Source of the DNA: Eledone cirrhosa
Lineage: Eukaryota
NCBI GenBank assembly: GCA_964016885.1
Contig: OZ024741.1
Span: 212,102,001 to 212,166,000 of the forward strand
Reading direction: 5' to 3'
Length of the DNA: 64,000 bases
Positions 2,758 to 63,017 of the stretch are shown piece after piece; the first letter of the stretch is position 1; every line of letters begins with the position of its first letter. The notes beneath the pieces were generated by a model that ran no database searches, was not told the DNA's origin, and saw nothing but the letters and a program-made list of their open reading frames with translations. A program made the position numbers and the translations under genes.

Positions 2758-2818
<61 letters not shown>
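2642..2818. repeat. (TA)n microsatellite separating two tail-to-tail PLEs
   Basis: Direct reading. Confidence 0.95.
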
Positions 2819-2821
<3 letters not shown>

Positions 2822-2932
2822 TAAAAGGAATTCCAACTTTGTCTGATTTACTTGTTTTATTTACAATCCTTTAAAATTATAATGATACTATAATGAAATA
2901 GTATGGTAGAATATTGTATGTTAAGTGCCAAT

Positions 2933-2971
2933 TGAACAAGTACTTTCATGCTTTCGCAATCTTCAGGTTCA
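2933..2971 (-). ncRNA. Minimal type I hammerhead-like motif
   Basis: Minus strand: tgaac CTGAAGA ttgc-gaaa-gcat GAAA gtac TT gttca; stem II base is mismatched. Confidence 0.6.
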
Positions 2972-3381
2972 CATTCAGTGGTGACAGTAAAGTTTGCAAT
3001 TTTCAACTGTAATGAGATCGGTAAATTCTGTGCCTTATATACAGTAAAAAGGGGCTACAGAATGCTAAGTTTTGCAAACTGTATATCGACCAATTGGTGT
3101 GCAGTTTCACTAGATTACTAAAGCTGATTGGTTTAGGCGTTACGGTTGGTTGAGCATGTCTAACGACTTCTATTTGACAATATCCAAAGCATCAATTGTT
3201 TTGCTATTTTTAGAAATGATGAAAATAGCATTTTCTAGGGTTTTTATAAAAAATCTTCAGTAATCATCACCATCACTTTTATTATTATTATTATTATTAT
3301 TATTGTTGTTGTTGTTGTTAGTGGTGGTAGTCAACATGGTCGTAGGCGTAGTCATAGTAGAAACAATACCCCTAAGCATTA

Positions 3382-5600
3382 TTATTGTTCATTTAGCTTG
3401 GGTTGGAATTTATCAATAAAATTCTTTTCTTTAATTTTTCTCTTGATTTCACTTGTGCTGTGTAATTTGTAGAATGGAAATATTATAAATATTTTTTGAC
3501 CACATGTTGCTAGATGGTTACTCAGGGGTATTTGACGGACATTTGGGTCTCTGATTTGCTGTCGGTGCACCCGTGCACGTTCCGATACTGCATTTCCAGT
3601 TTGACCGACATATAATTCTTCACAATTCGGGCATTTAATGCAGTAAATTAGATTTCTGCTTTTGTAGTTCATATTTACATTTGGGAATATTTTTCCAGTT
3701 TTTGTGTTCATATAATGACCAGTGTGTATGGATTGACATGTGCCACATCGACTATCATTTATTTAGATACAGTGAATGATTGATCTTTGTTGTTAAGGTC
3801 AAACTTTGCCTTTGTTAGTAATTGCTTCAAATGTTTCGGCTGTCTTTTACTAAGAGTCAAAGATCGGTCTGTGATTAAACCTTTTAATTCATTACTTTGA
3901 GCAATGATCGGTAGGTTTGCTTTGGCAGTGTTGAAGATATTCTGGTGACATAGGTTGTGAGTCATTATAAATTTTATGACCAGTTCTTGGTTTCTTCTTC
4001 CTTGGGTTGTCCTAAGTTTTTGTATAGGTATTTTTATAGCTCGCTGTATGCCATTTTCTATAAGTAGAGATAGGTATTTTTGTTTGAGCAAAAATTCTCT
4101 CAGTTATTTCAGGCGTTTGTACCTGGTATTCGTATCTTCTACAATGGTACAAATTCTTCTGGCTAGGCAGTATGGGATCTTGCGTTTTGTATGAGGTGGA
4201 TGGCACGTCTTAAAATTCAGATATCGATGGGTGTTTGTGTGTTTATAGTATATATCCTTGGTAATGGTTGTGTCGTATTTGATTACCATTATATCTAGGA
4301 ATGGTAATTTGGTACTACTCATCTCTTTTGTGAATTGGAGAGATGGGTGTGCGTTATTCAGGAGGGTATTGAACTCATCCAGAGTATCTAGAGATTCTGT
4401 CCAGATGATGAAACAGTCGTCAAGGTATCTCTTCCAAGACTTTTCAATGTACTTTCTAAATTCAGTGCTATATTTTTCCTCTATTTCTTGGTAGAGTTGT
4501 TGTTCTAAGTATCCACTTACAGAGTTCGCGTAAACGGGAGCAATCTTCGTTCCCATCGCTGTGCCTCTAATTTGGATGTATTTCTTTCCATTGAAGAAGA
4601 AAGTGTTGTTTTCCAGAATAATTTTGACTGCGTCTAATATAAATGGCGCTGTGAATCTGGTGGGATTCACTTCTCTATGTTTTTCCACCCAGTATTTAAC
4701 CGCCTTTATTCCTAAATCATGTGTAATGTTGGTGTAAAGTCTTTCCACATCAAAACTAAGTAGAAGTGAATTCGTTTCCGTGGTTTTGGGAAGATGGGAC
4801 AGGAAGTCGATATCATCCCGGATGAAACAGGGTATGTGAATACACAGTGGTTTCAAAATAATGTCAACAAAATTGCTTAGACGGTGGGTAGGGCATGTTG
4901 AACCAGCTATAATAGGTCTAAGTTTTAAGTCTTTTGGGTGTAGTAATTTAATGTACTCACTTTGTTGTTCTTTTACTGCCAGTTGGATTTCTTTTGACTT
5001 ATGAACTTTCGGTGGGTCATACAGGTTGCTGGGTTTGGGCTAAAAATTGGTGATATAATCTCTTTCCTTATCAGTAAGTGAGTTATAGTATTTTGAAGCC
5101 AGGTTATTGAACTTCTTCATGATGTTGTGGTCTATATTTGACGGTATTTCATGATAGAATGCTGTGTCTTTCAATTGTTTCTCAACCAAATCTTTGTAGT
5201 ATTCAGCATCCATTATAACAATTGCATCCCCTTTATCTGCTTGTTTAATTATTATTGTTTTATCGTTTTGTATACGTTTAAGTGCAGACATTTTTGATTT
5301 GTTAATGTTTGGCTCGACATTAGTATTACGTCTAAGAGGAAATTTTGACATCAATGTATTGGCCAAGATAGATATTTCTTCCTTTTGGCGGAGCGAAATT
5401 TGATGATTTATTCTTTACTAGTGATTCATCACTCTCATTACTTTTATCAGCGAAGAATTCTACAAGACGTAATTTTCGACAGAATTCTTGGGTATCCTCC
5501 TTCAGTTCTTGGTGGTTGACAGTTGGAGTCGGTGTGAATTTCAGTCCTTTTGACAGAATTTGCATTTCATCATTGTCAAGATCTCTTTTGGATAAATTAA
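3382..5600 (-). pseudogene. PLE RT plus GIY-YIG endonuclease with several stops and frameshifts
   Basis: LSKGLKFTPT, IKQADKG, LRPIIAG, SFDVERLYTNI, GTAMGTKIAP, RYLDD, LPFLD, CHPPHTK, NLIYCIKC..C...YVGQTG across ORFs 5332-5565, 5040-5366, 4104-4856, 3759-4091, 3382-3711. Confidence 0.92.
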
Positions 5601-7082
5601 TTATTTTAGGATCTACGTGTTCAGTTGTTTTGAGTATGTTTCCTCCTGGAGTTTTTCTTTTTCCGGTTTTTGTTGTCCTGACGTTAAAAAATGTATTTTT
5701 CTCTGTTCAGGATTTATATTCCTGTTGGTGTTTGCTTGATGAACTTTTGGTCGTGATATTATACTTAGTTTCGTCCTATTTTTGGTATTACGTATATTAT
5801 GGTATTACGTATTTTTGGTATTACGTATATTTTGGTATTACGTATATTATTTTTCCATTTTTCGTTAGCATTATTTTTAACAATCTAGGAAAATGACCTA
5901 GGTTTGCTTTCAGGTTTAGATCGTTTTTTCGTCCAGTTTCTTGTGGGTAATCTCTGTTGAGATCTTGAGAGTGATCTGGTTATTCTACAGTTTTTTTCCC
6001 CGTTCCTTGTGGGTAGTCTCTGTTGAGATCTTATATGTATGTATGTATATTTATATGTATGTATGTATGCGTGTTTAAATTTATGTATTTGTATTTATGT
6101 CCCGTTAGCTACGGTTCGACAACATATACAACGATGACATAAAAACTTGCGTCGATATTATCGACTGAAAAAAGACGCTGTTCCAGCCTGGCCTCAGTCT
6201 AATGATTGAATCTATTAAAAATAGAAAATTCTGAAATTCTGGCTCAAACTTACACGTAACGGAGCGCAGCCAAATCGTTTTCCGAACCGGGGTCGTGTAT
6301 GGCCCAGTGATTAGGGTGCTGGTTTCGAGATGATACGGTAGTAGATTCGACATCTTGATTGGGTAGGTTATTACATCGAATGTTAGGCTTACGAAGATAA
6401 GATCGAAGTTTTAGATTTCTAGATGGGGTGGTGCGTTGAGCTCTTGACTATGACGATTTATTTTAGGTCGCCCCACCACCACAACAACCACCAAAAACCA
6501 CAACAACACTACCACCAAAAACGACACAAACACCACCTCCAAAGACCACAAAACTACCACCACCAAAAACAACGAAACCACCTCCATTGCTACCACCGCC
6601 GCCATATATACATGCACTCATTGAGTATGTAAGTATGTTTATTATACTACCACTACTACCACTACCTCCACCATTAACACTACCACCGCCTCCGCTAGCA
6701 GCCTTACTATTAACGGCTCTACTACTAGCACCGCCACCAAGAATCTCCCTCTACCACCACCACCACCACCAATACCCCACCACCGCCACCAAGACCCCAC
6801 CACCATCATCAATACAACACAATGCAGTAGACATACATCAATACAATTATTGATATTAAAGTGTTATATTTTATGACGAAATATGATGAAATATTCCATT
6901 TAAACACGAAGGTCTGTTTTAATATCGTCTTCTGCGACAATTCAATCGGGAAAATGTCCAATGTTGCACAAATAACAATTACTTTAACATGCCTCTCCCT
7001 CTCTCTCGTTGTGGCTCTCTTTCACTCCCTTTCTCTCTCTCTCTCTTTATATATATATCTGTTTATATCTCTCTGTATTACA

Positions 7083-7804: not shown

Positions 7805-8060
7805 GGACCGGAAATCGCTCTGTATAATCAGCTCCTGTTTATTACTGGAATTCTATAAGAATCCAGCTTCAATAATGTTCGGAGAAAGCAGGGAGTGCGT
7901 GGCTCTGATGAACGCCAACCAGCGTGAAACGGACTGTCATCTTCCCTCCCTTCTTTCGCCGAAAAGAAGTAAGTGACAAAGGTCACTACTTTAAAACTGA
8001 TAGCGTAGGGTCTTCTAAATTTTTTAAATTAAACATACGGTATATTACCAAATATATTGT
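7805..8060 (+). mobile_element. Non-coding HHR-carrying element, family R1 (diverged copy)
   Basis: Colinear similarity to the unit at 56055-56741; begins at a (TA)n tract. Confidence 0.7.
7901..7942 (+). ncRNA. Type I hammerhead motif, canonical C3-G8 core
   Basis: ggct CTGATGA acgc-caacca-gcgt GAAA cggact GTC atct. Confidence 0.7.
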
Positions 8061-8277
8061 ACATACATTCATATATATATGTTTACTATGCGTAAAGTTC
8101 TATAAATGTGATCGTACACGAAGTTTTTAAACATTATCACTAATTAGTAATAACACGTCGGGCTTGTGCTAGCTGGAAATAAACTTTCAATAAAAATCTA
8201 TTGTTTACAAAACATAATTTATTAGGTTGAAACATTTTGTGAAGTGTAGAATAGAGTGTACTATTAGAAGGTTATAG

Positions 8278-8456
8278 GGTGGTGGATTGGCAGTATCGGT
8301 AGAGCGTCAGATGCCATGCATTGCAGCATGGAGTTATGGCCCTTTATGTTCTGAGATTAAATCCCGCCGAGGTTAACTTTGCCTTCCATCCTTACGGGGT
8401 GATATAAAATAAAGTACCAGTGGAATAATTGCTGGCCTTGTGTCAAAATTAGAAAT
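8278..8456 (+). mobile_element. tRNA-derived SINE, family S1
   Basis: tggcagtatcggtaga (A-box-like), B-box-like segment, shared body ctttgcc.ttcatccttacggggt found in more than 12 copies in the window. Confidence 0.8.
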
Positions 8457-9105
8457 AAAATAAAATAAAATTGATATAAAATAAAGTACCAGTGGAATAA
8501 TTGCTGGCCTTGTGTCAAAATTAGAAATAAAATAAAATAAAATTGATATAAAATAAAGTACCACTGGAATAATTGCTGGCCTTGTGTCAAAATTAGAAAT
8601 AAAATAAAATAAAATTGATATAAAATAAAGTACCACTGGAATAATTGCTGGCCTTGTGTCAAAATTAGAAATAAAATAAAATAAAATTGATATAAAATAA
8701 AGTACCAGTGGAATAATTGCTGGCCTTGTGTCAAAATTAGAAATAAAATAAAATAAAATTGATATAAAATAAAGTACCACTGGAATAATTGCTGGCCTTG
8801 TGTCAAAATTAGAAATAAAATAAAATAAAATTGATATAAAATAAAGTACCAGTGGAATAATTGCTGGCCTTGTGTCAAAATTAGAAATAAAATAAAATAA
8901 AATTGATATAAAATAAAGTACCACTGGAATAATTGCTGGCCTTGTGTCAAAATTAGAAATAAAATAAAATAAAATTGATATAAAATAAAGTACCACTGGA
9001 ATAATTGCTGGCCTTGTGTCAAAATTAGAAATAAAATAAAATAAAATTGATATAAAATAAAGTACCACTGGAATAATTGCTGGCCTTGTGTCAAAATTAG
9101 AAATA
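8401..9105. repeat. 72-bp tandem repeat, about 9.8 copies, derived from the SINE 3' end
   Basis: Units start at 8401, 8473, 8545 ... 9049; identical except acca[G/C]tgg. Confidence 0.95.
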
Positions 9106-9616
9106 ATAATTAGAAGACGACAGTTATTAAATGCTAAAAATATGATAAGAAAGTTGTTGGAATTGTATATTGGAGATATTTAAAGGTCTTTATATTTCGG
9201 GGAAAATTCCCCTCATCATAAGAATAATAGAATAAACCAATTTGGAATATATTATGTTGTGCTGAACATAAACTGCCATTTTTCAATTTAAAAAATGCTT
9301 TTATTTCCAACGGTATGTGGTGAATGGATTACATGGTGTGTGTTCTAAGCTATGTTCTGGCCTACACTATGGTTATATTTAGTTTTGAAGAAGAATGAAG
9401 CGTAGTATTAAATAGATTGGCAGCACGATCAGAACACTAGACCTCCGTATCATAAAACACCTCAACACACACGAACCTCCTTTCAGAAACACAAATAACG
9501 GTCCGTACACAAATACAAATATTTTTCTTTCTATACCCACACACCCACACACATATATACGTTTGTGTATGTGTTACTGTGTGCATCTCTCTCTCTCTCC
9601 CCTCTCTCTCTCTCTG

Positions 9617-13074: not shown

Positions 13075-13455
13075 TGGGTGGATTGGCAGAATCAGTAGAG
13101 CGTCGGACAACATGCTTCGCAGCGTAGAGTTACGGCCTTGCGTCCTAGGGTCAAATCTCACCGAGGTTAGCTTTGGCTTTCATCCTTACGGGGACGATAA
13201 ATAAAGCAGATGTAATGCACAGAGATCGATTGAATTGATTTCCCTTCCCCAAAAATTGCCGGCCTTGTGCTTAAATCAGAAAACATTATTACTAACTCTT
13301 AGTAATAATGTTTTCATAGTTACGTCCCTTTACGATCTGAGTTCAAATCCCGCCGAGGTTGACTTTGCCTTTCATACTTACGGGGTCGATAAAATAAAGT
13401 ACCAGTAATGCACTGGTTAATTGCTGGCCTTGTGCCTAAAGTAAAAACAATTATT
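13075..13455 (+). mobile_element. Two adjacent SINE S1 copies (second one 5'-truncated)
   Basis: S1 consensus motifs at 13075-13290 and 13315-13455. Confidence 0.8.
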
Positions 13456-13671
13456 ACTAACTCTTAAGCTTGTTACATCTACCATAAATTATATGTGACT
13501 GACTCAATACCAATGGTGAGTTGCGAATCAACATAAACTTTTGGTCATTACTAACTCTTATGTTTGTTACTGATTAACATATTTCGAAATAGAAAAGAAA
13601 AAGTTAAGCTTATAAGGCCAGAGAACGGCGTACGTTGGTGCATCTTGTCAGCATTATATGTAGATATGTAG

Positions 13672-13865
13672 AGGGCGGTGGATTGGCAGTATTGGTAGAG
13701 GGACGGACGCCATGCTTTGAAGCATAGAGTTACCTCCCTTTATGATCTGAGTTCAAATCCCACCGAGGTTAACTTTGCCTTTCATCCTTACAGGGTCGAT
13801 AAAATAAAGTACCAGTAATACACTAGGATAATTGCTGGCCTTGTGCCAAAAGTAGAAACAATTAT
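13672..13865 (+). mobile_element. SINE S1, full length
   Basis: agggcggtggattggcagtattggtaga...gagttcaaatcc...aagtagaaacaattat. Confidence 0.85.
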
Positions 13866-17867: not shown

Positions 17868-18244
17868 ATGTGCGTATGTGTGTGTGCGTGTGTGTGTGTA
17901 TCTTTGTGTTCATGTATGTACAAATGCATGCATATGCGTATATCTATGTATATATATGTATATTTATGTATGTATACAAGCAGCCTTGCATATATGTTGC
18001 ATATATATTTGTATTTAAGTATTTATCTGCGTTTGCATATGAAATAGTTTTATATATGTAAATTTTGTACCATGTACACTCGTAAATACGTCAGCCTTTT
18101 ACTTAAGAAACTGATATAAAATTACACCTGTGTGTTATCTGCCGTAATTTGCTTGAAATTTAGTATCACACACATCTCCTGTATAACACACACTCACTGC
18201 CAGATGACTGATTTTGTCAAGTGAGTTTGGTTACATTATTGGCA

Positions 18245-18820
18245 TGGATTGGCAGTATCGGTAGAGGGTCGGACGCCATGCTTTCCAGCATAGTTACGTC
18301 CCTTTACGATCTGAGTTCACATCCTGCCGAAGTTGACTTTGCCTTTCATCCTTCCGGGGTCGATAAAATAAAGTACCAGTAATGCAATGGGTAATTGCTG
18401 GCCTTGTGCCTAAAGTAGAAACAATTATTGGCATTATCAGTAGAGGGCGGTGGATTGGCAGTATCGGTAGAGGGTCGGACGCCATGCTTTGCAGCATAGA
18501 GTTACGGCCCTTTGCGGTCTTATTTCAAATTCCGCCGAGGTTAACTTTGCCTTTCCTCCTTACGGGGTCGATAAAATAAACTACCAGTAATGTACTGGAT
18601 AATTGCTGGCATTGTGCCAATAGTAGAAACAATTATTGGCAGTATCATTAAAGGGTCGGCCCCATGCTTTGCAGCATAGAATTACGTCCCTTTACGTTCT
18701 GAGTTCAAATCCTGTCGGGGTTAACTTTGCCTTTCATCCTTACGGGATCGATAAAATAAAGTACCAGTAATGTACTGGGTTATTGCTGGCCTTGTGCCAA
18801 CAGTAGAAACAATTATTATT
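18245..18820 (+). mobile_element. Three tandem SINE S1 copies
   Basis: S1 head and body recur at about 18245, 18443 and 18637. Confidence 0.85.
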
Positions 18821-23662: not shown

Positions 23663-24487
23663 ATATATATATGAATTAGAACCCTGTAACCATTAAGCTC
23701 TAAGTATAAAGTACAAATAAATACTGAGCCGATTAACAATATATAGTAAGAAACACAGTAAACCGTGTGTCTAAAATTACAAGGGTTGAAAAACCACATA
23801 TGCTTGAAATATTTAACCAAGAAACAGACAGGATGACAAAATGAAAATAGAAATATATTATCATAATACAAACCGCCTCAATAACCATTATATCTCTCGG
23901 ACAGATAATCCCTAATCTGTTTCGCCCCGAGTGTGTTTGTAACAGATAATCCTGGGCTTCATCAGCGAGAGATTACAATTAAATGTCACAAACACTATTT
24001 GCCAACGTTCACACAGAAAGATGAATTTATCACCTCGTGCGCCGCCAGTCAAACGTGGTAAGCGCGTATTGAACAGAAATAACAGTCCAACACGCACAAC
24101 TTAATAGCTCATCCTGTAAGAGAGCCGAAATATATATATGAATTAGAACTCTGTAACCATTAAGCTCTAAGTATAAAGTACAAATAAATACTGAGCCGAT
24201 TAACAATATATAGTAAGAAACACAGTAAACCGTGTGTCTAAAATTACAAGGGTTGAAAAACCACATATGCTTGAAATATTTAACCAAGAAACAGACAGGA
24301 TGACAAAATGAAAATAAAAATATATTATCATAATACAAACCGCCTGGCGGTTTGTATTATGATAATATATTTCTATTTTCATTTTGTCATCCTGTCTGTT
24401 TCTTGGTTAAATATTTCAAGCATATGTGGTTTTTCAACCCTTGTAATTTTAGACACACGGTTTACTGTGTTTCTTACTATATATTGT
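23663..24487 (-). mobile_element. Non-coding 467-bp terminally redundant unit with fold-back end, family R3
   Basis: Direct repeats 23671-23878 and 24138-24345; palindrome centred at 24345 extending to 24487; HHR-like motif at 23906-23975 on minus (CTGATGA a gccc...gggc GAAA). Confidence 0.75.
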
Positions 24488-25554: not shown

Positions 25555-25591
25555 ATGCCCTTGAGAAGCCTTTCGGGCGAAACGTAAGTAT
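25555..25591 (+). ncRNA. Candidate minimal hammerhead with U3-A8 core
   Basis: atgccc TTGAGAA gcc-tttcg-ggc GAAA c GTA agtat; stem I is imperfect. Confidence 0.4.
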
Positions 25592-32344: not shown

Positions 32345-33475
32345 CTATTTAATTCTGGTTTGGAGTTCATTTATGTTTATTGCCTCTGTGATTTGTCTAA
32401 ACATTGCGTCTTTTCTGTGGATGAAGTGTTCTATGTGTCTCTCTAGTTCTTTGGGGTTGCACATGTTGGACACGTTTCTCATCACCCGTACTAAATCCGC
32501 AATCAGTATGTTGGTTTTGGTGTAATCCGAAACAGCTGAGTTTCGGTGGATCAGATATTTGGAAGTCATGGGTTTGGCATAATGGGAATGAAGGATTTGT
32601 TTTTTTGTTATTAATGGTTTCTAACCAGAGCTCTATGTCTAGTACAGGTAATCGATGGTTGGGCTGTTTGCTTGGTTAGTCTATAGTAACTCTAATACTC
32701 TGGTTGATGGAGTTAACTATTTGCTGGATGCTTTCCATGATGTTTTTCTCTAATTACTGACTGTTCTCTAATGGGGGAGGGATTACTACGATGTTTATAT
32801 CATCAACGTAGCGAGAGTACATTATCAGGGTTAAGAGATTGCTGTCTTCTAATTGTTCTTTAAGTTTTTTGTCCCACCATACCACGAATAGGTTAGCTAT
32901 GTCACCTGCAATGCTAACGCCAATGGCTGCTCCCTCCTCTTGGGCATATGTTTTTCCATTAAATTTGAACATATGTTCCTTAAGGGTTAGTTTTATACTG
33001 GACCCCACCGCATCATTTTATTTAGTTCATCGTGGATTTCGGAGGTCCGTATGGCTCTGGTCCACCCGTTCCATCTTTCTGTGTGGGTTTTCTTGGCCAT
33101 TGAGGTAATGGTAGGTGGTCTGCCTCTTGCTGGTCTTGTGGGGCAGAGGTTGCTAAGGTCATACGTATCTAGATAATCATTACCATAAGTAAGTTTAAGT
33201 AGGAGTCCCAGCTCACTGGTATCAATCCCACGGAATTCAACATTGCTCTCACTGATCATTTCTACGCATTTCTCCACAGCAAAATCCACGTCAATGGATA
33301 GATATAGGGGCACAACATCCATACTACCTATTATACAGTCTGTTAGGTCCCTAAATCGGTTATTTTCGTCGATTCTGCTGAGGAGGTCCTCCGTGCTGTC
33401 ACATATATCCGGGGACATTTCAATGATGGGGCGTATGATCAGGGAGAGGAAGTAGGAAAGTCTGTAGTTACTAGA
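32345..33475 (-). pseudogene. PLE RT fragment with frameshifts and an internal deletion
   Basis: GSMDVVPLY, EGAAIGVSIAGDIANL, YSRYVDDI; clearly homologous to the 42078-45128 ORF. Confidence 0.9.
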
Positions 33476-34072
33476 CACATAGCTATGGTTAGAAACCATT
33501 AATAACAAAAAACAAATCCTCCATTCCCATTATGCCAAACCCATGACTTCCAAATATCTGATCCACCGAAACTCAGCTGTTTCGGATCACACCAAAATCA
33601 ACATACTGATTTCGGATTTAGTACGGGTGATGAGAAACGTGTCCCGCATGTGCAACCCCAAAAACCTAGAGATACACATACAACACTTCAATACTCCACC
33701 AACATGCTAAAGTAGAACATGAGGGCAAATTAGAGAACATAGAAATAAAAATAAAATCTACACACAGAAAAGATGAAATGTTTATACAAATCACAGAGGC
33801 AATAAACATAAATGAACTCCAACCAAAATTAAATAGAAAACATGAATGGAATAGCAACATCACAACTTACAATTAAGGACAACATGAAAACACACACACA
33901 TAGAACAAACAACCAACCAGTAACATGTAAATAAACAAATAAATAAACAAATAAAAACACACACAGGAACCCGGATGTAACACATACGCAAACTAAGCAC
34001 AGAACACATACAAAAACAAGATGGCGTAGGACAGAACAAAGGAGAGGCACAAAACAAAGAAAAGAAACACCA

Positions 34073-34115
34073 GTCACTGAAGAGGTCACAACATGTGTGA
34101 CGAAAGAACTTTGAC
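34073..34115 (+). ncRNA. Minimal type I hammerhead motif; mutated inverted copy at 32068-32111
   Basis: gtca CTGAAGA g gtcaca-acatg-tgtgac GAAA gaac TT tgac. Confidence 0.75.
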
Positions 34116-42077: not shown

Positions 42078-45000
42078 CTAGCATGTTCGTATAGTACTGA
42101 CCCGTTTTTTCGTCCTTTTAGTTCCCCCCCAGTGTTGGTCTATCCTTTCACCTATGCTACGAGCTGTCTCACCTATGTATGTTGTTGTCATGTTTCTGCA
42201 AGTACCCTCTGTACATCTTATGCTATAGACTACGTTTCTAGTTTTACAGTTTATCCGGGGGTTCACCTTACATATGATACACTTCCTATTGATACAGTGG
42301 GTTTTCTTAAAAGGGTAGGTTTTGCTGATCAGGGATTTTATGGTGGTTCCTGGCTTTTCTACCACCTTTATTTTTAAGTGGGTCTTTCTCAGGGCCTTTC
42401 TACACTGGTTAGCTAATTTCCCTCCAGGGGTGGCGTCCACAAACATGACACTCTGATATCTCTGGTTGTCGTACCATGATGTGGCCTTCCCTATCTTATG
42501 TCTAGCCCTATCTAAGCTATTCCATGATTTGCTCCTGTATAGTGGGCAGATTCCTTTCATGTCCAGTTCTATGAGGGTCTTATACTTTTCCATGGCTCCT
42601 TCGTATACTCTGACTCTGTCTCTTTGGTTGTAGCCAGAGAACTGCATGCGGTTGATGAAGTGTTGGATGTGTCCTTCCATTTCTGTTGGGTCGCACATGC
42701 TGGACACATTCTTCATCACTCGTACCAAATCTGCGATCAGAATATTAAACTTAGCACTACTGGACATTGCTGAGTTTTTGAGTATCAGGTATTTGGAGGC
42801 CATGGGTTTAGCATAGTGTGAGTGGAGAATTTGGGCTCTCTCGTCTATAGTGTTAATCCAGAGTTCTGTGTCTAATACAGGTAGTCTATTGTTAGGGTGT
42901 TTGGAAGGGAAGTCTATAGTTACAGTTATACTCTGGTGTATGGAATTAGCTATCTGCTGGATGCTTTCCATCGTGCTACGTTCTAAATCGAACTTGTTAG
43001 TGCTCTCTAGTGGGGGTGTTCTTATAACTATATTGATATCATCTACATAACGAGAGTACATGATGAGGTATATGGAGCTTTCATTAAGGAGATCTTTAAG
43101 TCTCCTTTCCCACCATACCATAAAAAGGTTGGCAACATCACCAGCTATGCTGACGCCGATGGCTGCTCCCTCATTTTGGGTGTAGATTTTCTCATTGAAC
43201 TTAAATATGTGGCCCTTTAGGGTAGTTTTGATACTAGCCCCTATTACATGTGCGACCATTTTTCTTACCTGATCAGTGTTTTGGGGGGTCCGTATGGCTT
43301 TGGTCCACCCAATCCACCTTCCTATGGGAGTCTTTTTAGCCATTGAGGTTATGGTGGGGGGTCTACCTCTTATAGGTCTACTAGGGCAGAAACATCTAAG
43401 GTCATGGCTGTCTAGGTAGTCAGTGTCGTAGGTAAGTCTAAGTAGGAGGCCCAGCTCGTCTGTGTCGACGTCGCAGAACTCCACCTCACTCTCAATGATC
43501 ATCTCCACACATCTTTTCACAGCAAAATCAATGTTAATGGATGGGTACAGTGACACTACATCCATGCTGCCTATTATGCAGTTGGATAGGCTCCTGTTTT
43601 TGTTGCACTCACTGATTCGGCTGAGGAGGTCCTCTGTACTTTCACATACATCTGGGGACATCTTGATTATTGGGCGTATAACCATTGAGAGGAAGTAGGA
43701 GATCCTGTAGTTGCTAGCTATATTAGCTCCGCATACGGGTCTTGTTGGTGGTCCTGTTGTCGGGTCGTCGACTGTCTTGTGGTCTTTGCGGAGCCCATAC
43801 AAGGGTGGTATGCCATTGTTAGACGCCTGGAAGTTGTTGGCAGTGCGTCTGCTTGGCTTTAGGATCTCAGTCCACATCATCATGTGAGCGTTGAGGATTT
43901 TTTCTCTCCCATCGTGTGTTATTTGTGCAACTTCGCTCGTGTTGGTGATGTGGGGTTGCATTGCCTCGATGTAGTTCGGCATGCTATCTATTGACATCCT
44001 ACCAGACTTATCTGTGGGTAGACACACTATCTCACCATCCCTTGTGCGCTGCTTGAGGCTAACCAAGCCTTCTACAGGTTTTCTCCCAAGTTGTTGGGCC
44101 TCTGGTCTGCTCTGTCTCATAGTGTACCTGTCTACTACCTGTCTAATCTTATTTCTAGCTATGGTGAACTGTGCCTCCGTCTCGTCATCTATTTGCTGTG
44201 GTATGCAAACTCTTTTATTAAAGGGTAACCTCGTAGGATAGATATTACCCATCTTATATGTTTTGTCAGCTGGGTTGAAAAATAGTTTCTCTAAGGGGTT
44301 GTCGTTATTTCTATCTTCATAGTTGTGTGTGTTGCTATTATTGTTATCATGGTGGTTGTTGTTGTTTCTATCATTAGCATTATTATTATTATTGTTATGA
44401 TTGCTAGATGTATTGTTGTTTACTTCACCGTTATTGTTGTTGTTGTTACTGCTATTTCTACCATTGTGGTTGTTACTATTATTATGTTTCTTGTTTTTGT
44501 TGATGTTGCTACATGTACTATTTTCATTATTACCACTGTGGTTATTGTTGTTGTTGTTCGTATTGTTACCGTTATTACTACTGTGGTCACTGTTGCTGTG
44601 TCTGTGGTTAACGTTTCTATTATTATTATTATTGTGGTTGTTGTTGTTCCGTCTATCGCTAGTATTGTTGCCATTATCACTATTTCTCACTTTCCTGCCA
44701 TTGTTATGGTTATAGCTGTTATTTCTATACCCAGAGTTATTGTTTATATTATTACTACCGTTATTATTGTTGTTGTTGTTTACCTTTGCATTCCAACGTA
44801 TTTTTGTGAAACACTTTTCCAGCTCCGTTTTGCATTCCATAGGGTTAATCTTTTTGTAGATGGCAAATTTTGGTGGTAACCTTAGGATTTGTTGTTCTTG
44901 TTTGCTGATTAAAGTGTTCCCATAGATATTTACTGTGTGGTCATTGGTAAATTCTTCCGGTAGTTTTACATCACTCATACGGATATTGTCGATGTTATCT

Positions 45001-45128
45001 GGGTATTTTTGAGAATATTCGATTTTCCTTTCTTGTAGTTTTTTCTTATTCATCCATTCTAATTTCTTCTTGAAATGCCTACAGCATTCGTTTTGAGCAT
45101 ATTTCGTTTCGCGTCGGATGACGCTCAT
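42078..45128 (-). CDS. PLE reverse transcriptase plus GIY-YIG endonuclease, 1016 aa; 5'-truncated; +1 frameshift near 42127, homologous stop at 41891
   Basis: PTDKSGR, YGLRKDHK, RPVCGA, GSMDVVSLYPSI, GAAIG, RYVDD, LPVLD, C-x4-C-x2-C, NVVYSIRC, YIGETAR. Frame stays open upstream to the inversion junction near 45173. Confidence 0.93.
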   Translation of the reverse strand: MSVIRRETKYAQNECCRHFKKKLEWMNKKKLQERKIEYSQKYPDNIDNIRMSDVKLPEEFTNDHTVNIYGNTLISKQEQQILRLPPKFAIYKKINPMECKTELEKCFTKIRWNAKVNNNNNNNGSNNINNNSGYRNNSYNHNNGRKVRNSDNGNNTSDRRNNNNHNNNNNRNVNHRHSNSDHSSNNGNNTNNNNNNHSGNNENSTCSNINKNKKHNNSNNHNGRNSSNNNNNNGEVNNNTSSNHNNNNNNANDRNNNNHHDNNNSNTHNYEDRNNDNPLEKLFFNPADKTYKMGNIYPTRLPFNKRVCIPQQIDDETEAQFTIARNKIRQVVDRYTMRQSRPEAQQLGRKPVEGLVSLKQRTRDGEIVCLPTDKSGRMSIDSMPNYIEAMQPHITNTSEVAQITHDGREKILNAHMMMWTEILKPSRRTANNFQASNNGIPPLYGLRKDHKTVDDPTTGPPTRPVCGANIASNYRISYFLSMVIRPIIKMSPDVCESTEDLLSRISECNKNRSLSNCIIGSMDVVSLYPSINIDFAVKRCVEMIIESEVEFCDVDTDELGLLLRLTYDTDYLDSHDLRCFCPSRPIRGRPPTITSMAKKTPIGRWIGWTKAIRTPQNTDQVRKMVAHVIGASIKTTLKGHIFKFNEKIYTQNEGAAIGVSIAGDVANLFMVWWERRLKDLLNESSIYLIMYSRYVDDINIVIRTPPLESTNKFDLERSTMESIQQIANSIHQSITVTIDFPSKHPNNRLPVLDTELWINTIDERAQILHSHYAKPMASKYLILKNSAMSSSAKFNILIADLVRVMKNVSSMCDPTEMEGHIQHFINRMQFSGYNQRDRVRVYEGAMEKYKTLIELDMKGICPLYRSKSWNSLDRARHKIGKATSWYDNQRYQSVMFVDATPGGKLANQCRKALRKTHLKIKVVEKPGTTIKSLISKTYPFKKTHCINRKCIICKVNPRINCKTRNVVYSIRCTEGTCRNMTTTYIGETARSIGERIDQHWGGTKRTKKRVSTIRTC

Positions 45129-45426
45129 GAAGTCGTCTCTCTCGTTTGCTGTGATGAGATTTCGGATTTCCTTACACCACTGACGATGTTGCAGATGTGC
45201 AACGAAAGATTTATGTAAATTATGTAAACTATATATATATATATGTGTTTGTGTCTATATTGTATCTGTATTATTTTTGACCGCCGGTCAGTCAATGGCA
45301 ACATTGAGGACCGAGTAAGTTAGATCGCAGATATAATAAAAGACAGTGAGAAGCGAAAACCAACCAAACAGTGAGTGTGTTCTGTTATTAATTCTGGCAA
45401 TATTACGCAAATATGACCCTCCCCAA

Positions 45427-56040: not shown

Positions 56041-56741
56041 TATGAATGTGTATATAGTGTATTTTGCAATACACTGTATGCTTAATTAAAAGCATTTCGA
56101 AGACCTTACGCTATTGTTTTAGAGTAGTGACAGTCTCACTTACTTTAATTTTCCGCAAACAGGGAGATAAAGCTGACAGCGCTCTGTTACGCACTTTTTG
56201 GTGCTTATCAAAGCTAAGTACTCCACATGTTTGCTGAAAATCATTTATGTTTGATTCTTATAGAATTCTAGTAATAATCAGGAACTGATTATACAGAGCG
56301 GTTGCCGGTCAAGCAGAAATTGAAAATTAGAATTGGTGCTCTGAAATAGCGATATATATATATGAATGTATATATAGTGTATTTTGCAATACACTGCATG
56401 CTTAATTAAAAGCATTTAGAAGACCTTACGCTAGTGTTTTAGAGTAGTGACAGTCTCACTTACTTTAAATTTTCAGCAAACAGTTCCTGATTATTACTAG
56501 AATTCTAAAAGTATCAAACATTCATGATTTTCAGCAGACAGGTAGAGTACTTGGCTTTGATAAGTACCAATCAGTACGAAACAGAGCTCTTTCAGCTTTA
56601 TCTCCCCTTTTGGCAGAAAATTAAAGTAAGTGAGACTGTCACTACTTTAAAACAATAGCGTATGGTCGTGGAAATGCTTTTAATTAAGCATACAGTGTAT
56701 TGAACAATACACTATCGCTATTTCAGAGCACCAATTCTAAT
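56041..56741. mobile_element. Family R1: about 1.4 tandem ~300-320 bp units on minus plus an inverted unit on plus
   Basis: Direct repeat with 320-bp spacing (56041/56361); 56481-56716 is the inverse of 56054-56288; one HHR in each orientation. Confidence 0.8.
56553..56597 (+). ncRNA. Type I hammerhead motif with U3-A8 core; partner at 56171-56215 on minus
   Basis: ggct TTGATAA gtac-caatca-gtac GAAA cag-agct-ctt TC agct; partner agct TTGATAA gcac-caaaaa-gtgc GtAA cag-agcg-ctg TC agct. Confidence 0.7.
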
Positions 56742-56759
56742 ATATATATATATATAAAC

Positions 56760-57165
56760 GGAAAAAATGAAACGATATTTCATTTCCCACTCTTAGTACG
56801 GCTGTTACTTAAATATAAGTATGTACACGTACATACATATATGTATACCGACGTACAGTAGTATGTATATATATATATACATACATGCACACATATATAT
56901 ATGCACGTATGGATTCACCGAACACTTATTATAATGCTCGGTGTGTTTGTAAACAAACATCCCGTATTAAGCCGTAGTGTCTAGCAAGCACCGTTGCTCG
57001 TTTGTTCAACACTGACAAAGGAACGCTGTACTAGTTTCAAGCTTGTTAGCTATCGTCAGCAACGTATACCCTCCTGCCAGATTGTTGAACGTATATACTT
57101 ACCTTATGCATATTAACGGCTGAGTAGCCCAATTTGCATATCGAGTGGGTTAATCGGCCGGGTGC
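56760..57165 (-). mobile_element. Family R2 second copy with HHR at 57025-57063
   Basis: Minus: gttg CTGACGA tagct-aaca-agctt GAAA cta GTA cagc; colinear with 31145-31572. Confidence 0.8.
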
Positions 57166-60076: not shown

Positions 60077-63017
60077 CGGCGATGAATTAGTTTTGCGAGG
60101 TTTTTTATATGAAATCGTGTGTCGAAACAGATATTGTTATATTTGGGGAGGGTCATATTTGCGTAATATTGCCAGAATTAATAACAGAACACACTCACTG
60201 TTTGGTTGGTTTTCGCTTCTCGCTGTCTTTTATATATATATATCTGCGATCTAACTTACTCGGTCCTCAATGTTGCCATTGACTGACCGGCGGTTAAAAA
60301 TAATACAGATACAATATAGACAAACACATATATATATAGTTTACATAAATCTTTCGTTGCACATCTGCAACATCGTCAGTGGTGTTATATTCATTGTTCC
60401 TCCTGTTGTGTTGTATGTCTACGCCATTTTTTTTTTTTTGTTCAGTCTGTCTATATATTTATTTATTTATTTATTTGCTTGTTTGTTTATCTTATTTTAT
60501 TTTGTCTTCTTTGCGCATGCGTTTGCGTGTGTGTATAGTGTTATGTGTGATGTGTGACTAGTGTGTATAGTGTTGTGTCTGCTGGGTGACTAGTGTGTGT
60601 TTATGTGCTTGTGTATGTATTTATTTATCTTATTTTATTTAATTTAATTTACTTATTTATTTATACTTCTCTTAGGTCAGTGTTGTTTGTTTGGGTGTTG
60701 TTGTTGTTCCACTCATTCTTTCTGTTTAGCTTTGGTCTTCTAATTTCTATTTCACTGGCCTCTCTGATTTGCCTATCTGCTGGGTCATTCCTATGTTTAG
60801 ATATTATTCTAATTTCTATGTTGTCTATGTTACCGTCATGATGTTGTCTAGCATGTTCGTATAGTACTGACCCGTTTTTTCGTCCTTTTAGTTCCCCCCA
60901 GTGTTGGTCTATCCTTTCACCTATGCTACGAGCTGTCTCACCTATGTATGTTGTTGTCGTGTTTCTGCAAGTACCCTCTGTACATCTTATGCTATAGACT
61001 ACGTTTCTAGTTTTACAGTTTATCCGGGGGTTCACCTTACATATGATACATTTCCTATTGGTACAGTGGGTTTTCTTAAAAGGGTAGGTTTTGCTGATCA
61101 GGGATTTTATGGTGGTTCCTGGCTTTTCTACCACCTTTATTTTTAAGTGGGTCTTTCTCAGGGCCTTTCTACACTGGTTAGCTAATTTCCCTCCAGGGGT
61201 GGCGTCCACAAACATGACACTCTGATATCTCTGGTTGTCGTACCATGATGTGGCCTTCCCTATCTTATGTCTAGCCCTATCTAAGCTATTCCATGATTTG
61301 CTCCTGTATAGTGGGCAAATTCCTTTCATGTCCAGTTCTATGAGGGTCTTATACTTTTCCATGGCTCCTTCGTATACTCTGACTCTGTCTCTTTGGTTGT
61401 AGCCAGAGAACTGCATGCGGTTGATGAAGTGTTGGATGTGTCCTTCCATTTCTGTTGGGTCGCACATGCTGGACACATTCTTCATCACTCGTACCAAATC
61501 TGCGATCAGAATATTAAACTTAGCACTACTGGACATTGCTGAGTTTTTGAGTATCAGGTATTTGGAGGCCATGGGTTTAGCATAGTGTGAGTGGAGAATT
61601 TGGGCTCTCTCGTCTATAGTGTTAATCCAGAGTTCTGTGTCTAATACAGGTAGTCTATTGTTAGGGTGTTTGGAAGGGAAGTCTATAGTTACAGTTATAC
61701 TCTGGTGTATGGAATTAGCTATCTGCTGGATGCTTTCCATCGTGCTACGTTCTAAATCAAACTTGTTAGTGCTCTCTAGTGGGGGTGTTCTTATAACTAT
61801 ATTGATATCGTCTACATAACGAGAGTACATGATGAGGTCTATGGAGCTTTCATTAAGGAGATCTTTAAGTCTCCTTTCCCACCATACCATGAAAAGGTTG
61901 GCAACATCGCCAGCTATGCTGACGCCGATGGCTGCTCCCTCATTTTGGGTGTAGATTTTCTCATTGAACTTAAATATGTGGCCCTTTAGGGTAGTTTTGA
62001 TACTAGCCCCTATTGCATGTGCAACCATTTTTCTTACCTGATCAGTGTTTTGGGGGGTCCGTATAGCTTTGGTCCACCCAATCCACCTTCCTATGGGAGT
62101 CTTTTTAGCCATTGAGGTTATGGTGGGGGGTCTACCTCTTATAGGTCTACTAGGGCAGAAACATCTAAGGTCATGGCTGTCTATGCAGAAACACGACAAC
62201 AACATACATAGGTGAGACAGCTCGTAGCATAGGTGAAAGGATAGACCAACACTGGGGGGAACTAAAAGGACGAAAAAACGGGTCAGTACTATACGAACAT
62301 GCTAGACAACATCATGACGGTAACATAGACAACATAGAAATTAGAATAATATCTAAACATAGGAATGACCCAGCAGATAGGCAAATCAGAGAGGCCAGTG
62401 AAATAGAAATTAGAAGACCAAAGCTAAACAGAAAGAATGAGTGGAACAACAACAACACCCAAACAAACAACACTGACCTAAGAGAAGTATAAATAAATAA
62501 GTAAATTAAATTAAATAAAATAAGATAAATAAATACATACACAAGCACATAAACACACACTAGTCACCCAGCAGACACAACACTATACACACTAGTCACA
62601 CATCACACATAACACTATACACACACGCAAACGCATGCGCAAAGAAGACAAAATAAAATAAGATAAACAAACAAGCAAATAAATAAATAAATAAATATAT
62701 AGACAGACTGAACAAAAAAAAAAAATGGCGTAGACATACAACACAACAGGAGGAACAATGAATATAACACCACTGACGATGTTGCAGATGTGCAACGAAA
62801 GATTTATGTAAACTATATATATATGTGTTTGTCTATATTGTATCTGTATTATTTTTAACCGCCGGTCAGTCAATGGCAACATTGAGGACCGAGTAAGTTA
62901 GATCGCAGATATATATATATAAAAGACAGCGAGAAGCGAAAACCAACCAAACAGTGAGTGTGTTCTGTTATTAATTCTGGCAATATTACGCAAATATGAC
63001 CCTCCCCAAATATAACA

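Follow-up and report, generated by a model that had tools for sequence, protein, structure and literature searches.

Two questions stand open for animal retrozymes: which enzyme moves them, and whether the hammerhead matters for transposition of the Penelope-like (PLE) type. Both could be tested with a short repeat, R1, at positions 56041-56741 of the window, i.e., the whole 64,000-nt stretch of Eledone cirrhosa contig OZ024741.1 analysed here. R1 is a real and well-supported new family, within a known class (the metazoan non-LTR retrozymes). The preferred reading, which is likely, is that of a non-LTR retrozyme whose transcripts, predicted to cleave themselves and to circularise, serve a Penelope-like reverse transcriptase (RT)/endonuclease, probably that of a resident Neptune-like family, as templates for insertion into (TA)n microsatellites. 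The initial annotation had seen here its best candidate for an undescribed system, which does not hold: non-LTR retrozymes (PMC7229834), their proposed origin from PLEs (bioRxiv 10.64898/2026.07.22.740005) and the U3-A8 core (PMC4209133) have all been published.

R1 copies in the window

The R1 features of the window, and the PLE copy discussed further below, are the following.

56041-56360, minus strand: full monomer of R1 (GCAC subfamily, U3-A8) that forms the left arm of an insertion with two arms
56361-56483, minus strand: upstream partial monomer, 5'-truncated, 3' part of about 123 nt, at a 320-nt offset; 95% identity to the full unit
56481-56483, no strand: CAG microhomology of 3 nt at the inversion junction, read from the sequence
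56481-56716, plus strand: right, inverted arm, U3-A8, GTAC/CAATCA subfamily; 89% identity to the left arm
56717-56740, plus strand: PLE-type tail of 24 nt, equal to the start of the next monomer; (TA)n follows
56163-56226, minus strand: hammerhead of type I with U3 at 56211; the cut is predicted 3' of 56175, and the lesion is A13U
56542-56605, plus strand: hammerhead of type I with U3 at 56557; the cut is predicted 3' of 56593, and stem III has the lesion G16.2U
7805-8073, plus strand: one-armed R1 copy, 5'-truncated, C3-G8 lineage, between (TA)n runs
7888-7950, plus strand: hammerhead of type I with C3 at 7905; the cut is predicted 3' of 7938, and stem I is mismatched at 1.2
2814-5706, minus strand: broken Neptune-like PLE copy, candidate helper family, unlinked to R1 here

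The three hammerhead motifs seen initially are present, with cores at 7905 (+; CUGAUGA, stem II ACGC/GCGT), 56557 (+; UUGAUAA, stem II GTAC/GTAC) and 56211 (-; UUGAUAA, stem II GCAC/GTGC). The coordinates first given (7901, 56553 and 56171) do locate the motifs, but they are stem-I starts or span ends rather than core starts. The three units are homologous, as was stated (the 56041-56350 copy shares 75% and 89% identity with the other two), and the tandem spacing of 320 nt and the inverted arm joined at the shared CAG, 56481-56483, also stand. Three features had been missed: the arms at 56 kb belong to different subfamilies, 56717-56740 is a tail of the PLE type, and every copy in the window differs from intact ones by a lesion, so that none is predicted to be fully active. 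The left arm ends in a (TA)n run, at the site called "base" below, and the right arm has a deletion of about 20 nt ahead of its tail.

Across the (TA)n, R1 adjoins another repeat (56757-57150, plus strand), which is also present at the R1 loci L027 and L069 (L plus a number being a locus label in the analysis set) and has 24 matches among the R1 loci. Elsewhere in the window there are dispersed copies of a tRNA-like SINE (8272-9131, 13258-13824, 18232-18776, 28031 and 58604), one of which contains some ten repeats of a 72-nt unit from its 3' part, and a long near-perfect hairpin (24253-24438, the source of a spurious MIR868 hit), which by the ORF listing occurs twice, about 490 nt apart, and is possibly MITE-like or an inverted PLE end.

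Unit structure and copy number

The R1 monomer has 316-322 nt and a GC content of 34-38%, repeats head-to-tail, has no ORF and bears a type I hammerhead motif. Helix III has 3-4 bp in all subfamily groups, and helix I is bulged and extended; contacts of loop 1 with loop 2 are presumed, by analogy with Schistosoma motifs. The unit is non-coding, as described, and circularly permuted: its own 3' end sits upstream of unit position 1, which makes it a closed permutation, and the longest stop-to-stop frame inside the repeat of a natural trimer (L268) has 67 aa and is not kept from unit to unit. Arrays range from dimers to about 35 and at least 42 units. No LTR-like layout was seen in the inspected copies, nor does R1 have the RT plus GIY-YIG ORF between pseudo-LTRs (pLTRs) of an autonomous PLE.

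Rfam HH9 matches two of four R1 loci, below the gathering threshold (E values of 0.0025 and 0.012). In the Rfam scan of the whole window, the 150 matches listed of 244 are all microsatellite-driven, with no hammerhead among them, and the repeat search of the window was likewise swamped by microsatellites.

A pattern search of the 3.0 Gb assembly gives 2,879 matches to the R1 core, against one for the reversed control, so the motifs are not a product of chance. They divide into 1,556 U3-A8, 1,253 C3-G8 (a count obtained by subtraction), 37 C3-A8 and 33 U3-G8 cores. Positions 3 and 8 are thus Watson-Crick in 2,809 of 2,879 cores, and the mismatched cores number 70 where independence of the two positions would predict 1,424; the covariation suspected from three copies holds genome-wide. 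Most of the listed mismatched cores have the stem II of either lineage, which fits decay after insertion. The family had also been called invisible to CUGANGA searches, which is true of part of it but not of the C3-G8 cores (1,253/2,879); a census of hammerheads should ask for a 3-8 pair instead of the fixed motif CUGANGA. DNA searches gave 1,095 first-look candidates with a U copy as the query and 2,923 with a C copy, and the best 40 of each were scored.

Two switches of the 3/8 pair

Because the copies are not independent, a tree was built to count the switches. It includes 86 of 193 near-full units, one per locus, drawn from BLAST-ranked sets that were reduced to about ten members each; L117 and 13 duplicate loci were dropped, and the core and stem II columns were left out. 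The main U3-A8 clade (40 rows, support 100/100) is joined to C3-G8 via intermediates, while a small U3-A8 clade (6 rows, support 100/98) is nested in the C3-G8 lineage. Monophyly of U3-A8 is rejected with a p-AU of 0.0013, for a group set after the first tree and with the bootstrap unsettled. As read from these sequences, the pair has switched twice between C3-G8 and U3-A8, and the thousands of concordant copies amount to two events. The tree is unrooted, so it does not give the direction of the switches. Of the diagnostic columns, 46 in the small clade resemble the C lineage and four the U lineage, positions 3 and 8 being among the latter; by hand count it makes up about 63 among the 100 matches listed of 119, where double decay predicts fewer than one.

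Selection on the ribozyme fold, which the initial annotation had deduced from the window copies, is borne out by the conservation of the core across subfamilies and by compensated pairs. Among the majorities of nine subfamily groups, one of ten invariant-core positions varies (position 17), compared to 88 of 226 non-ribozyme columns, a figure inflated by 5'-truncated members of small groups. Thirteen of 48 named pairs changed on both sides, with 95.6% of cells paired in 27 copies; among these are all four stem II pairs, five in the extended stem I, and two 3' hairpins. The shuffle control for pair changes is lenient, since the sequences are related. Circular folds of natural units have z scores of -4.1 to -6.9 in six of six copies. 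It is from conservation that self-cleavage of R1 is inferred.

Folding also predicts a helix that would compete with the active fold, in which the core pairs with the 5' strand of stem III. In 42 main-lineage copies the predicted penalty of the active fold is 2.9 kcal/mol with U3-A8 vs. 5.6 with C3-G8, taking only secondary structure into account; in the small clade there is no improvement (6.1 vs. 6.1, n = 2). The small clade has A-A at the base of stem II, and one C3-G8 subfamily has U-U there and a majority U at position 17; all of these features are predicted to lower activity. As for the U3-A8 core itself, "U3-A8 instead of C3-G8" has been reported in about 1,300 Schistosoma PLE hammerheads (PMC4209133): the headline feature is a known variant, but here it arose as a pair twice.

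Anatomy of the insertions

The insertions, 152 in number, come from 168 loci, after 15 duplicate loci and edge-cut groups were dropped. There are two sites at which R1 units end on the 3' side, the base (unit positions 310-320) and the tail (33-38), the latter accounting for 73 of 236 ends. Ends that run into TA are 154/236 overall and 72/80 among tail ends. In a strict set of 59 insertions, drawn from the pattern list by their order in the genome, 29 have two arms whose 3' ends both point outward, and the 22 of these that can be classified all have one base arm and one tail arm (54/60 over all loci). One insertion (L267 plus L269) keeps this two-arm anatomy around about 35 units. The two arms usually come from one subfamily; arm pairs share the 3/8 state in 28 of 30 cases, and two or three pairs, that of the window included, differ by a compensated change in stem II. 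The arms that differ in this way within one insertion are those of L001 and L002 (and L150), which suggests two different RNA templates in one event.

R1 thus combines a tail of about 35 nt, (TA)n targets, 5' truncation, inverted second arms and partial tandems. Craig et al. (PMC8557442) list the same insertion features as hallmarks of PLEs, and Frangieh et al. (PMC11167929) describe the PLE tail as the distance between two internal start sites of the RT, both target strands being cut. Mobilisation by PLE machinery, as proposed initially, is supported by an insertion anatomy of the PLE type, and these scars are more direct evidence of PLE mobilisation of an animal retrozyme than was found in print.

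The same scars bear on the idea that R1 is a satellite spread by unequal crossing-over or conversion, the 3/8 pattern merely hitch-hiking in subfamilies amplified by chance. The long arrays, with their local duplications, shared variants and unprotected core, speak in its favour. Fixed 3' ends, random 5' truncation, the asymmetry of a single tail and (TA)n targeting are, however, scars of reverse transcription, and two compensated core switches plus 13 compensated pairs are unexpected without selection at the RNA level. For the dispersed copies the satellite reading is largely refuted, and for the family as a whole it is very improbable, although it may account for the changes of long arrays after their insertion.

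A candidate helper

The family labels Neptune, Poseidon and Nematis are assumed here from motifs, not from a tree. The Neptune-like copy of the window has RT and GIY-YIG pieces at 3382-5706 and a pLTR at 2814-3138 on the minus strand. Neptune-like elements target (TA)n, have a tail of 33-43 nt and include many frames of 775 aa with RT and GIY-YIG domains; by hand count, 11 of 11 of their two-armed insertions have one tail. Tails are about 56-63 nt in the PLE family found at 42078-45254 and about 120 nt in the Poseidon-like family.

Two loci, L024 and L064, contain a fusion of Neptune-like PLE and R1. In L024 the tail arm of the Neptune-like element reaches its usual 5' end and enters R1 via a 4-nt microhomology, opposite an R1 base arm; in L064 both arms have tails. 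Such fusions represent two of four Neptune hits near R1, vs. 4/74 for another PLE family (p 0.03, the hits not being independent), and the four fusions with that other family speak against the preferred reading. When the R1-Neptune fusion was used as a query, it returned Neptune pLTRs and no further fusion among 30 loci. A later insertion with deletion of the target explains any single fusion, so the chance that the Neptune-like family is the R1 helper is put at about even or slightly better.

Could R1 rather be the orphaned pLTR or UTR of some coding PLE family outside the sample? In Xenopus, 24/57 retrozyme families match PLE termini (bioRxiv 10.64898/2026.07.22.740005), and the present sampling covers five or six of the genome's PLE families and the best 40 candidates of each DNA search. 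No R1 copy that forms the UTR of a coding PLE, the finding that was to overturn the initial annotation, occurs among those sampled, and the R1 profile has no homology to the window PLEs, to 30 Neptune-like 3' ends, to seven long Neptune-like copies or to six Poseidon-like pLTRs. At 6/168 loci (5/168 without the cases selected from the window) R1 has PLE coding sequence no farther than 250 nt away, with no common junction. A closed 320-nt permutation, arrays of up to 35-42 units without ORF, and a canonical hammerhead where the pLTRs of resident PLEs have minimal ones also argue against an orphan, which is improbable.

The Neptune-like pLTR (2814-3138, minus strand; L229-L258) has CCAAT- and TATA-like boxes and 3,698 motif matches. 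Many Neptune-like insertions begin at one nucleotide and are often two-armed and hairpin-like, and this start site implies a short transcript of about 235 nt that retrotransposes alone. A Poseidon-like PLE has, at 25561-25590 (plus strand), a second U3-A8 minimal hammerhead, unrelated to R1, with 1,553 motif matches genome-wide; PLE coding sequence lies upstream in 3/6 loci of this type, and a 3' extension of about 120 nt is optional. Two related PLE families whose linker has a zinc-finger-like motif (42078-45254 and 60661-62301, minus strand, and 32993-34100) have minimal hammerheads, (TA)n targets and tails of 56-63 nt; the 1,058-aa frame has no Pfam match.

Nature of the template

The position of 5' ends informs on the template, since an RT that copies cut linear monomers would be expected to halt at the cut. 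None of 25 unselected R1 arms stops within 4 nt of the ribozyme cut (49 arms were examined, of which 24 are too short), and there is no other internal pile-up of R1 5' ends, 2/204 ends lying no more than 3 nt from it. Neptune-like arms behave otherwise: 22 of 38 (hand count) stop at one fixed 5' position downstream of the TATA-like box. The comparison, for a Neptune set selected on its 5' motif, gives a Fisher p of 4.5e-7. The pile-up in Neptune-like arms indicates that this RT marks fixed RNA ends, so the R1 template should be either ligated or uncut.

The second possibility amounts to a PLE-mobilised R1 whose template is an uncleaved linear multimer transcript, no circle being copied, while the hammerhead works elsewhere (release from read-through transcripts, or a protein-assisted step late in the cycle). 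[quoted passage not shown] Read-through of the cut fits uncleaved RNA equally, and arrays of 14-42 units are present. Some lesions are common to both arms of an insertion (C3-A8 in L033, A10.1 in L154), which means that crippled ribozymes may be copied, or that arms convert each other.

However, the units of long arrays have a load of 6-7% and only 16/102 have an intact ribozyme, whereas 25/34 dispersed copies (a BLAST-ranked set) are intact, at 1.7% from the nearest neighbour. The sampled long arrays are therefore unlikely templates. Neither does a pile-up of 5' ends mark a fixed transcript start, and the core has been under selection through at least nine subfamily groups. Poor array templates together with a core kept under selection favour cut-and-ligated circles, and the linear template is unlikely. 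Rare variants shared by tandem units (10% for U and 6% for C, vs. 2% between loci) fit a common template, circle and multimer alike.

The long arrays (L092, L093, L266+L270 and L267+L269; 14-42 units of young subfamilies) have units 10-13% apart, flat with distance, with shared variants in mosaic and a transversion-rich spectrum (transition share of 0.41-0.46 vs. 0.63). Age does not explain this divergence; raised mutation, error-prone copying or assembly error may. Two further ideas were discarded. The arrays are not specifically enriched in ribozyme-killing changes, as the core load (0.03-0.06) is not above that outside (0.08-0.09), with 0.08-0.16 in the stems. Nor are arrays at different loci copies of one array, as cross-array distances exceed those within arrays.

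Proposed mechanism

Under the preferred reading, a transcript spanning two hammerheads would release a monomer, whose ends would be held by extended stem I, which spans the cut, and joined by a host ligase, as for other retrozymes. A PLE protein, the putative enzyme behind the observed anatomy, would nick both strands of a (TA)n run, and cDNA synthesis would be primed for each strand at its own internal RNA site, the two sites lying about 35 nt from each other. The resulting base arm and tail arm, pointing outward, would be joined at their truncated 5' ends by microhomology. By crossing the cut site and the monomer junction, a read-through that is observed, the RT would generate partial tandems from the presumed circle. 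Lastly, subfamilies may have been founded only by templates with a paired 3-8 core, a cause suggested by the observed pattern, so that each of the two switches between C3-G8 and U3-A8 would have changed both positions together; for the main lineage, the predicted effect of U3 is a weaker competing inactive helix.

A bolder version is offered tentatively and is doubtful. A viroid-sized R1 circle would parasitise, without homology to it, a Neptune-clade RT, with two priming sites 35 nt from each other that serve the two strands of a single (TA)n; arrays of 11 kb would be possible in a single event, and the 3-8 pair would have been rewired twice under RNA-level selection, once escaping a misfold. 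If this is true, no animal retrozyme before R1 has had its helper named and its priming sites mapped. With R1 come a candidate helper whose frames are intact, two priming sites known to within a few nucleotides, and natural alleles of the C3-G8, U3-A8 and mismatched kinds, which makes both of the opening questions testable in one in vitro system.

Comparison with known systems

In the literature covered, which included few subscription papers, no cephalopod retrozyme, no tails or inverted arms in retrozymes and no repeated 3/8 switches within one family were found. Ribozymes are unmentioned in the main text of PMC13282606, and a 2020 review (PMC7761336) states that no motif gave a pointer to the retrozyme helper. 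The added value of R1 is the evidence for a helper from insertion scars, and a repeated natural compensatory switch.

Metazoan non-LTR retrozymes were defined by Cervera and de la Pena (2020, PMC7229834), who proposed PLEs as helpers, and R1 agrees with them in every sequence criterion tested. Like R1, those of coral, mussel and axolotl, and the newt satellite 2, have a canonical type I hammerhead and form non-coding tandems, from monomers to long multimers, of 150-450 bp units with a GC content below 45% and thousands of copies; the predicted circle is highly self-paired in both. The axolotl HHR_Amex2 has U-U at the base of stem II, as one C3-G8 subfamily of R1 does. A U3-A8 canonical hammerhead, PLE tails, inverted arms and (TA)n targeting are not described in the available text of that paper; for R1, unlike those retrozymes, cleavage and circular RNA are predictions from sequence. 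Plant LTR retrozymes are more distant, with a type III hammerhead in LTRs, whereas R1 has type I topology and no LTR pair.

Among PLEs, the minimal hammerheads of Schistosoma Cercyon pLTRs (PMC4209133) have the same 3/8 covariation as R1. PLE pLTR hammerheads lack helix III and lie beside an ORF, in contrast to the 3-4 bp helix III and the bulged, extended helix I of R1. EN+ PLE insertions (PMC8557442; PMC11167929 for the mechanism of PAc) resemble those of R1 in their 5' truncation, partial tandems, inverted 5' copy and microsatellite bias, and in an optional tail of 30-40 bp at one end. Non-autonomous Chlamys elements such as MRC1 are also multicopy and head-to-tail; they resemble their partner at the 3' end and belong to a clade without canonical hammerheads, while R1 has no ORF.

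Li et al. (bioRxiv 10.64898/2026.07.22.740005) have argued that the Xenopus retrozymes derive from PLEs as non-autonomous elements. The link to PLEs rests there on co-occurrence and pLTR homology; for R1, where no such homology was found, it comes from insertion anatomy and fusions. The elements are otherwise alike, being non-autonomous, hammerhead-bearing and PLE-associated, with an amphibian average length of about 316 bp.
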